Positions 13,191-13,491 of a DNA stretch of 14,098 nt are shown piece by piece. Made by a program: the position numbers and the translations under genes. Under the pieces are notes generated by a model. The model was not told the DNA's origin. It saw only the letters and a program-made list of their open reading frames with translations, and searched no databases. Origin of the DNA: a virus; the UHGV virus genome UHGV-2186863; one strand, given 5' to 3'. Each line of letters starts with the position of its first letter. The stretch's first letter is position 1.

Positions 13191-13491
13191 GTCACTTTCT
13201 GACGTCCTCTGTTAAAAACTGACGCATAATGACCGCTGTGATTTTTCAGAATTCACACAGCAGCGTCTTGTTTGATTGATATTTACACAATATGGTTGTT
13301 TTATCCGGTTTCTTCCACCACCGCACCGGACAGGCGGCCATGCGGGAAAACGCTCACGTTACCTGAAAACGTGGAAAGCCCGGTGTGCATCGTTTTTGAT
13401 TATCCCCACACACTCGCGCAGGAGGTCCAGTGTCTGGCTGAGGTCTCTGTTAATGCGGGAATACTGCGACGATACGGCGCATCAGCAAAAC

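Follow-up and report, generated by a model that had tools for sequence, protein, structure and literature searches.

A widespread structured RNA-like element at the junction of lysis and packaging genes in lambdoid phages

The window analyzed here is the whole 14,098-nt stretch of viral DNA designated UHGV-2186863. The region shares 99.8-100% identity with Escherichia phages PhiR12_3 and PhiR5_2 and about 92% with VT2-Sakai and other 933W-type Stx phages (Sepvirinae), relatives that identify it as the late operon of a short-tailed Stx-phage-like prophage. All late genes lie on the minus strand, in the order Rz (with Rz1 embedded in it), a gap of 301 nt, terS, terL, and portal (Table 1). The gap, positions 13191-13491, is bounded by terS at 13190 and Rz at 13492. 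A preliminary description made from the sequence alone had called this interval non-coding and free of credible open reading frames, and both statements hold: the mechanical ORFs that overlap it have no Pfam match, and the sole PHROG match among them, phrog_17757 (unknown function), lies in the Rz-antisense part of a 156-aa ORF. This match covers residues 74-156 (E=7e-44), and phrog_17757 is probably a family of spurious ORF calls opposite Rz. No tRNA or tmRNA was found by ARAGORN.

Table 1. Features of the gap between Rz and terS and of its neighbors, in window coordinates.
Feature	Position	Strand	Basis or remarks
Rz (i-spanin), upstream neighbor of the gap	13492..13959	-	ORF list and annotation of near-identical phages
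Rz1, embedded in Rz	13554-13739	-	ORF list
EL, conserved structured element of ~180 nt, late-transcript sense	13302..13481	-	covariance model R1, BLAST, pattern scan
EL 5' domain, single long irregular hairpin	13377..13481	-	RNAalifold consensus and pair counts
P1	13469-13475 with 13387-13393	-	7 bp, nearly invariant
P2	13453-13463 with 13401-13411	-	11 bp, 5 of 11 pairs with compensatory changes
Inner hairpin of EL 5' domain	13434-13437 with 13427-13430	-	
P2b			5 bp, 2 of 5 pairs with compensatory changes; helix spotted by eye
P3			3 bp, in EL 5' domain
P4, hairpin of variable stem sequence	13355..13373	-	window stem CACGUU/AACGUG
P5, 3' hairpin UCCGGU...ACCGGA	13304..13330	-	7 bp, invariant GAAGAAA in loop
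Spacer and terS 5' leader	13191..13301	-	111 nt, conserved only among 933W-type (Sepvirinae) phages
9-bp hairpin in spacer	13232-13264	late sense	-12.7 kcal/mol, z=-1.97
terS (933W-type small terminase), downstream neighbor	12339..13190	-	phrog_370 'terminase small subunit', E=1.3e-116; annotations
terL	12358..10652	-	gene order
Mechanical ORF overlapping gap, 98 aa, TTG start		+	ORF list
Mechanical ORF overlapping gap, 156 aa, TTG start	13276-13746	+	ORF list
Mechanical ORF overlapping gap, 34 aa		-	ORF list

BLAST with the gap recovers its first ~190 nt, taken in the late-transcript orientation, from lambda, 434, ES18, and Stx1 and Stx2 phages, among others, where the flanking sequences are unrelated. 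In an initial alignment, conserved blocks were interspersed with changes that look compensatory. The alignment places sharp boundaries around the shared segment, here termed EL, with sequence diverging at once on the outside. The window copy of EL begins 10 nt past the Rz stop codon, ends 111 nt before the terS ATG, and comprises 180 of the gap's 301 nt. A pattern scan of IMG/VR located at least 120 loci, with 47 distinct versions of EL among the matches listed. A covariance model, R1, was built from 18 sequences with the window and VT2-Sakai types excluded, and it matched the window at 13302-13481 on the minus strand over all 180 model positions (143.4 bits, E=1.6e-44), with no second match in the window. 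Full-length matches to R1 were also obtained in the Sakai prophage Sp10 (178 bits) and in the cryptic prophage DLP12 of E. coli K-12 (154 bits; NC_000913.3 579,009-579,176, plus strand). The K-12 copy sits between borD and ybcV (3010-3177 of the K-12 stretch), and the curated K-12 record carries no feature at this site.

The surroundings of EL vary in content and follow one layout in the 98 loci surveyed: holin, lysozyme, and Rz come before EL, with bor, rha, or kilA following them at some loci, and after EL come optional morons of ybcV, ybcW, or ylcI type and, last, a terminase, which may be of any type. In lambda, EL lies between bor and a ybcV-like gene at ~46.86-47.04 kb (a position derived from the imm21 hybrid by offset). 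The ES18 copy has rha before it and the genome end and terS after it, and the Stx2-1717 copy has a KilA-N gene before it and an HNH gene and terS after it. The window copy is likewise 3' of Rz, 5' of the packaging genes, and on the strand of the late genes. The 105-nt 5' domain of EL occurs in 4,140 of 5,426 complete E. coli genomes, about three quarters (~76%), at 10,998 places of which 691 are on plasmids, with 2 copies per genome at the median and 11 at most. Annotation at these places is 'none' in nearly all rows among the matches listed. A contig scan returned only Escherichia species, E. albertii, Intestinirhabdus alba, and a few stray contigs, a taxonomic range that is probably underestimated given the strict pattern used. 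P22 and HK97 are absent among the matches listed, and EL is therefore probably not essential.

EL did not correspond to any Rfam 15 family in the five versions scanned. Rfam 15, whose families include AgvB, AsxR, Esr41, STnc100, IsrK, C4, and Sok, gave nothing relevant in window positions 12800-14098 at E<=5 and nothing on EL at the lambda, ES18, Stx2-1717, and VT2-Sakai loci at E<=1. The only Rfam match at the homologous loci was a weak one to Esr41, elsewhere in VT2-Sakai. Literature searches, which included literal sequence strings and papers on phage sRNAs and whose coverage was not complete, returned no description of EL. EL is a very widespread structured RNA-like family that appears to lack annotation.

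The predicted structure of EL comprises a 5' domain of ~100 nt, which contains P1, P2, P2b, and P3 separated by highly conserved internal loops, followed by two further hairpins, P4 and P5. Conserved unpaired blocks of the 5' domain include UUAAC, GAGUGU, AAUCAAAA, and GCACACCGGG. The domain is joined to P4 by a linker, ACACCGGG-UUUU, and a second linker, UUU(A/U)UCCC, connects P4 to P5. The stem of P4 differs among variants at the same position, where the window's CACGUU/AACGUG is replaced by CUGUG/CGCAG, CCGCG/CGCGG, CAGC/GCUG, CGGCG/CGCUG, or CGCGU/ACGCG. Five of the seven pairs of P5 show compensatory changes (CCGG/CCGG, UCGA/UCGA, CCUG/CAGG), and this helix is the same as inverted repeat I7 of a repeat scan. 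The window copy is able to form P1, P2, and P4, as judged by folding, as well as P5, for which the arms TCCGGT/ACCGGA are present; P2b is weaker in this copy. A possible switch pairing, CACCGGG/UCCGGUG (inverted repeat I9), was considered and rejected. It becomes mismatched in variants where P5 covaries and remains paired, indicating that I9 is not the selected helix.

The preliminary description had singled out two repeats in the gap. The 6-bp inverted repeat CACGTT-7-AACGTG was recovered by the repeat scan exactly where it had been placed, at 13355-13360 and 13368-13373. The GAAAACG direct repeat is also present, with its coordinates one base off: the copies start at 13346 and 13365, rather than at 13345 and 13366. 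The scanned 381 nt contain 13 perfect or near-perfect 6-nt inverted repeats and four short direct repeats, and with so many comparable repeats in so short a sequence neither the inverted nor the direct repeat is, taken alone, above chance. The inverted repeat is nonetheless P4, a true covarying stem of EL. The second copy of GAAAACG is part of the conserved EL linker, and the first overlaps P4 by chance.

The case for structure was built on two alignments. The first comprised 34 versions of EL aligned by MAFFT on sequence only, with structure assigned by RNAalifold; it yielded 30 pairs, 96.8% of cells paired, and 11 pairs with compensatory changes. The observed paired fraction, compensatory-pair count, and covariation score were never reached in 500 column shuffles, and sliding the 3' partners by 1 to 3 columns reduced pairing to only 32-58%. 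The second alignment comprised 18 versions, with all window-type and Sakai-type sequences excluded and P2b added, and gave 33 pairs, 95.4% paired, and 13 pairs with compensatory changes, values again equaled by 0 of 500 shuffles. Covariation across the five helices of EL thus amounts to 13 pairs with compensatory changes and 95-97% of cells paired; several of these changes are common to a single clade, the ES18 class, so that the independent events are fewer than the cells counted. Strand asymmetry was also pronounced. Helix cells of the late-sense strand include 160 G-U and 10 A-C combinations (A-C would read as G-U on the opposite strand), 96.8% of cells pair in the sense strand vs 81.9% in the antisense, and single-sequence MFE and centroid folds of window RNA 13377-13481 recovered P1 and P2 in the sense strand only. 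The G-U bias and the sense-only folding together bear the hallmark of an RNA co-transcribed with the late genes. Folding-energy z-scores were not significant (+0.89 for 216 nt, -0.28 for the 5' domain, -0.50 for the 3' part). As thermodynamic stability is unremarkable, the case for structure rests on covariation, and on this comparative evidence the window EL is very probably a member of a selected, sense-strand structured RNA family.

Part of this sequence has been annotated as a protein gene. An 86-aa ORF is drawn over EL in VT2-Sakai and its relatives (orf48, NP_050547, 3095-3355 of the VT2-Sakai stretch), matches phrog_6954 at E=3.5e-53, and carries the label 'Rz-like spanin' in both RefSeq and PHROGs. 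That EL is a small protein gene of this kind is extremely improbable. The orf48 frame is broken in the window, where 34 aa are left and phrog_6954 has no match among the ORFs; a frame is open across EL in only 11 of 42 variants in the sense direction, and in 15 of 42 in the antisense. Indel lengths in EL do not keep to multiples of three, Pfam has no domain for it, and the true Rz1 lies within Rz. With the frame not kept across variants and the true Rz1 accounted for within Rz, the spanin label looks like a propagated mis-annotation of a non-coding element. A second suggestion of the preliminary description, that the gap is the remnant of a lost bor-like gene, fares no better: tblastn with Bor finds nothing in 13191-13491 at E<=10, and six other moron proteins, YbcV, YlcI, Rha, KilA, and YbcW among them, likewise have no match there at this threshold. 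In lambda, EL adjoins an intact bor.

The interval had also been proposed to hold a packaging site, by analogy with the position of cos in lambda. Both cos and headful pac sites share with EL a placement between the lysis genes and terS, the gap is directly upstream of terS in the window, and the 111-nt spacer between EL and terS is conserved only with a 933W-type terS (89% identity to VT2-Sakai and 33% to Sp10). The proposal did not survive comparison with other phages, because the conserved part of the gap is common to phages with unrelated packaging systems. Terminases that accompany EL include lambda Nu1/A, HK97-like HNH and terS (Stx2-1717, Sp10), ES18, and 933W-type enzymes, and in lambda itself EL is ~1.5 kb upstream of cos. 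No GGGCGGCGACCT-like cosN site occurs in the gap at up to two mismatches, tblastn with Nu1 had no match, and the window's terS belongs to phrog_370 (933W-type) and not to Nu1. The literature places the 933W-type TerL in the class 'headful (933W type)' (PMC7317114), and the record of a related phage, phi367, carries a note with the words 'circularly permutated genome'. The occurrence of EL with unrelated terminases, together with the headful class of the 933W-type TerL, leaves a cos or pac role and a bor remnant alike unsupported. Further points against packaging are that recombination joints split EL between the lysis and head sides and that its helices pair in the manner of an RNA strand. EL itself is very unlikely to serve in packaging, and the chance that the gap holds a pac or cos accessory site for the 933W-type terminase is very slight, though the 111-nt spacer, for which the indirect evidence is neutral, may have a pac role.

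A better pac candidate for a headful phage would be the array of TGCGCA palindromes inside terS. The count of this hexamer in the whole window is not above chance (10 vs 7.0 +/- 2.6), yet the copies are strikingly clustered: seven of the ten fall within 179 bp, 12882-13060, in the 5' third of terS and mostly ~12 bp apart. The clustered array encodes a repetitive AQK/QKN stretch of TerS. The analogy is with the hexamer repeats of P1 pac.

Comparison of identity levels along the locus revealed that EL coincides with recombination joints. Between VT2-Sakai and Sp10, identity is 100% in Rz, 97% in the EL 5' domain, 52% in the EL 3' part, and ~33% downstream, and the comparison of Sp10 with 1717 produces the mirror-image pattern. 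These opposite gradients indicate that crossovers which swap lysis and head modules fall inside EL, and genome comparison has thereby demonstrated the EL patch as a place where lysis modules and head/packaging modules swap by homologous recombination. A relic of the EL 3' end, 12-15 nt long (GGAAGAACGCGGG..., GGAAGAACGCGGGATGTTC...), recurs in lambda and K-12 past the ybcV-ybcW block, ~1.06 kb downstream of the complete EL (2825-2842 of the lambda imm21 stretch, 4235-4252 of the K-12 DLP12 stretch). Phages that have no such block join EL straight to the same downstream sequence, and this suggests that the ybcV-ybcW moron inserted at the P5 loop. A gene for a Rha-like regulator lies between Rz and EL in some Stx2a phages (2781-3332 of the Lyz12581Vzw stretch); since EL still adjoins terS in these phages, the Rz-EL junction is a point of moron insertion.

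From these joints it could be argued that EL is a mere homology linker for module exchange, or a single-stranded DNA structure for priming or recombination, with no RNA function. The mosaic joints inside EL and the 3'-end relic flanking the ybcV-ybcW block in lambda and K-12 would both fit such a role. A pure linker, however, needs sequence identity and not compensatory base-pair changes, and the G-U excess together with the six alternative P4 stems indicates selection for pairing in one strand. G-T pairs are poorly tolerated in DNA hairpins. A linker and nothing more is thus an improbable account of EL. Conserved non-coding patches at module boundaries, as EL is with its internal mosaic joints, are a feature of the modular-exchange model of lambdoid phages, in which Susskind and Botstein, and later Juhala and colleagues (in 2000) and Clark and colleagues (in 2001), are said to have discussed linker or boundary sequences. 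Classical linkers are short and have no known structure, in contrast to the 180 nt of EL with its compensatory changes.

A late regulatory element was the third content proposed for the gap, and it comes closest of the three. The gap does hold a structured element that reads in the late-transcript direction, and a regulatory function for it is putative. In a scan of 12900-13800 for sigma-70 promoters and terminators, no late-sense promoter or terminator was found in the gap; the terminator-like matches in this range were all TGCGCA palindromes inside terS, on the plus strand. The alignment likewise contains no conserved promoter before EL and no conserved terminator after it. EL is consequently most likely made within the long late mRNA. 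There it would form one domain of the Q-dependent, Q-antiterminated late transcript, situated where the lysis genes give way to the packaging and head genes, and would act in cis as a folded RNA at the junction of lysis and morphogenesis. Its likeliest role would be as a determinant of nuclease processing or stability, or as a docking site for a host RNA-binding protein, and in this way it might protect or demarcate the two halves of the polycistronic late mRNA. As for a specific activity, EL may bind a protein, guide a nuclease, act as a switch, or be a catalytic RNA.

The components of this interpretation differ in strength. The assignment of EL to a structured RNA family is, as described above, the firm part; that it acts in cis on the processing or stability of the late mRNA is the favored reading of its mechanism but a tentative one, possible rather than probable. 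For the whole explanation, a structured RNA family with a cis role in the late mRNA, a probability of about 0.5 is a compromise between these two levels of confidence. That EL is a previously undescribed functional phage RNA family with a specific activity, controlling processing or expression of the late transcript at the boundary of lysis and morphogenesis, falls a little short of even odds.

A role in trans would make of EL a non-coding RNA or a protein sponge, cut from the late transcript or made from a moron promoter, that binds a host factor or host RNAs in the course of lytic growth. Hfq is one candidate partner, by virtue of the invariant A-R-N-like GAAGAAA loop and the U-rich linkers. 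EL is discrete, with sharp boundaries on both sides, its unpaired blocks are highly conserved, and Hfq-bound sRNAs (AgvB, AsxR, EcOnc10-12) are known in lambdoid late regions (PMC4104026). On the other hand, there is no conserved promoter or intrinsic terminator, and the Hfq-CRAC table from uninduced cells contains no peak on the sense strand of EL (Tree et al. 2014, PMC4104026). A trans-acting role is accordingly judged unlikely.

The known prophage sRNAs were also considered as the content of the gap itself. The anti-sRNAs AgvB and AsxR were set aside, as they map 3' of pR'/stx. EcOnc10, 11, and 12 are abundant Hfq-CRAC peaks (Tree et al. 2014, PMC4104026), found at Sp9, Sp10, and Sp12 (5944-6011 of the Sp10 stretch), and their overlap with EL was ruled out once coordinates had been calibrated on AgvB (an offset of +139 to +143). 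After recalibration, these sites correspond to an intrinsic terminator on the antisense strand (CUGCUGUGACUCCAACACGGCAG followed by a U run), 8-17 nt past the 3' end of EL. The 9-bp hairpin in the spacer of the window is a diverged one at the same relative place; this hairpin pairs better in the late sense and has no U run. These EHEC prophage sRNAs are 50-60 nt long, have their own terminators, and are encoded on the strand antisense to late transcription (PMC4104026). Like EL, these Hfq-bound RNAs are non-coding and occupy conserved positions in lambdoid late regions, and EcOnc10-12 adjoin it; EL differs in being on the sense strand, three times longer, without a terminator, and absent from the table of Tree et al. 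2014.

Several other systems offer parallels to the proposed cis role. RNase III processing hairpins (of the T7 R1.1 type, lambda sib, and the N-leader) partition the transcripts of T7 and lambda. Like EL they are conserved irregular hairpins with internal loops between functional blocks of genes in a long phage transcript, and, as proposed here for EL, they act in cis and have no promoter of their own, a functional analogy. EL has no sequence similarity to them, is larger (~180 nt and five helices), and contains very conserved unpaired blocks. The put RNAs of HK022, ~70 nt with two stem-loops, lie just downstream of the early promoters and confer antitermination. They resemble EL as structured RNAs within a lambdoid operon, with put working on its own transcript, and differ in that EL lies 3' of the lysis genes, on a transcript already antiterminated by Q, and shows no similarity to put (no Rfam match). 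From cos and headful pac sites, EL is distinguished by its independence of terminase type, its distance from cos in lambda, and its RNA-type pairing.

The presence of a member of a widespread structured family makes the gap more interesting than the preliminary description proposed. For the phages themselves, EL marks a preferred crossover point for the exchange of lysis and head modules, and the result corrects the idea of a cos or pac site in this interval and points the search for pac toward terS. For annotators, R1 provides an RNA model of an element to which the label of a 'spanin' protein is sometimes wrongly given. Should EL prove to be a functional RNA, a conserved, covarying RNA domain of ~180 nt would be carried by lambda and by ~76% of complete E. 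coli genomes, with up to 11 copies per E. coli genome and with Shiga-toxin phages among the carriers. Expression of lambdoid late genes would then gain a post-transcriptional layer, and lysis, virion production, and Stx release may in turn be affected in timing and yield. Because EL is present in lambda and in DLP12 of K-12, such a role would be directly testable in the best-known phage and host.
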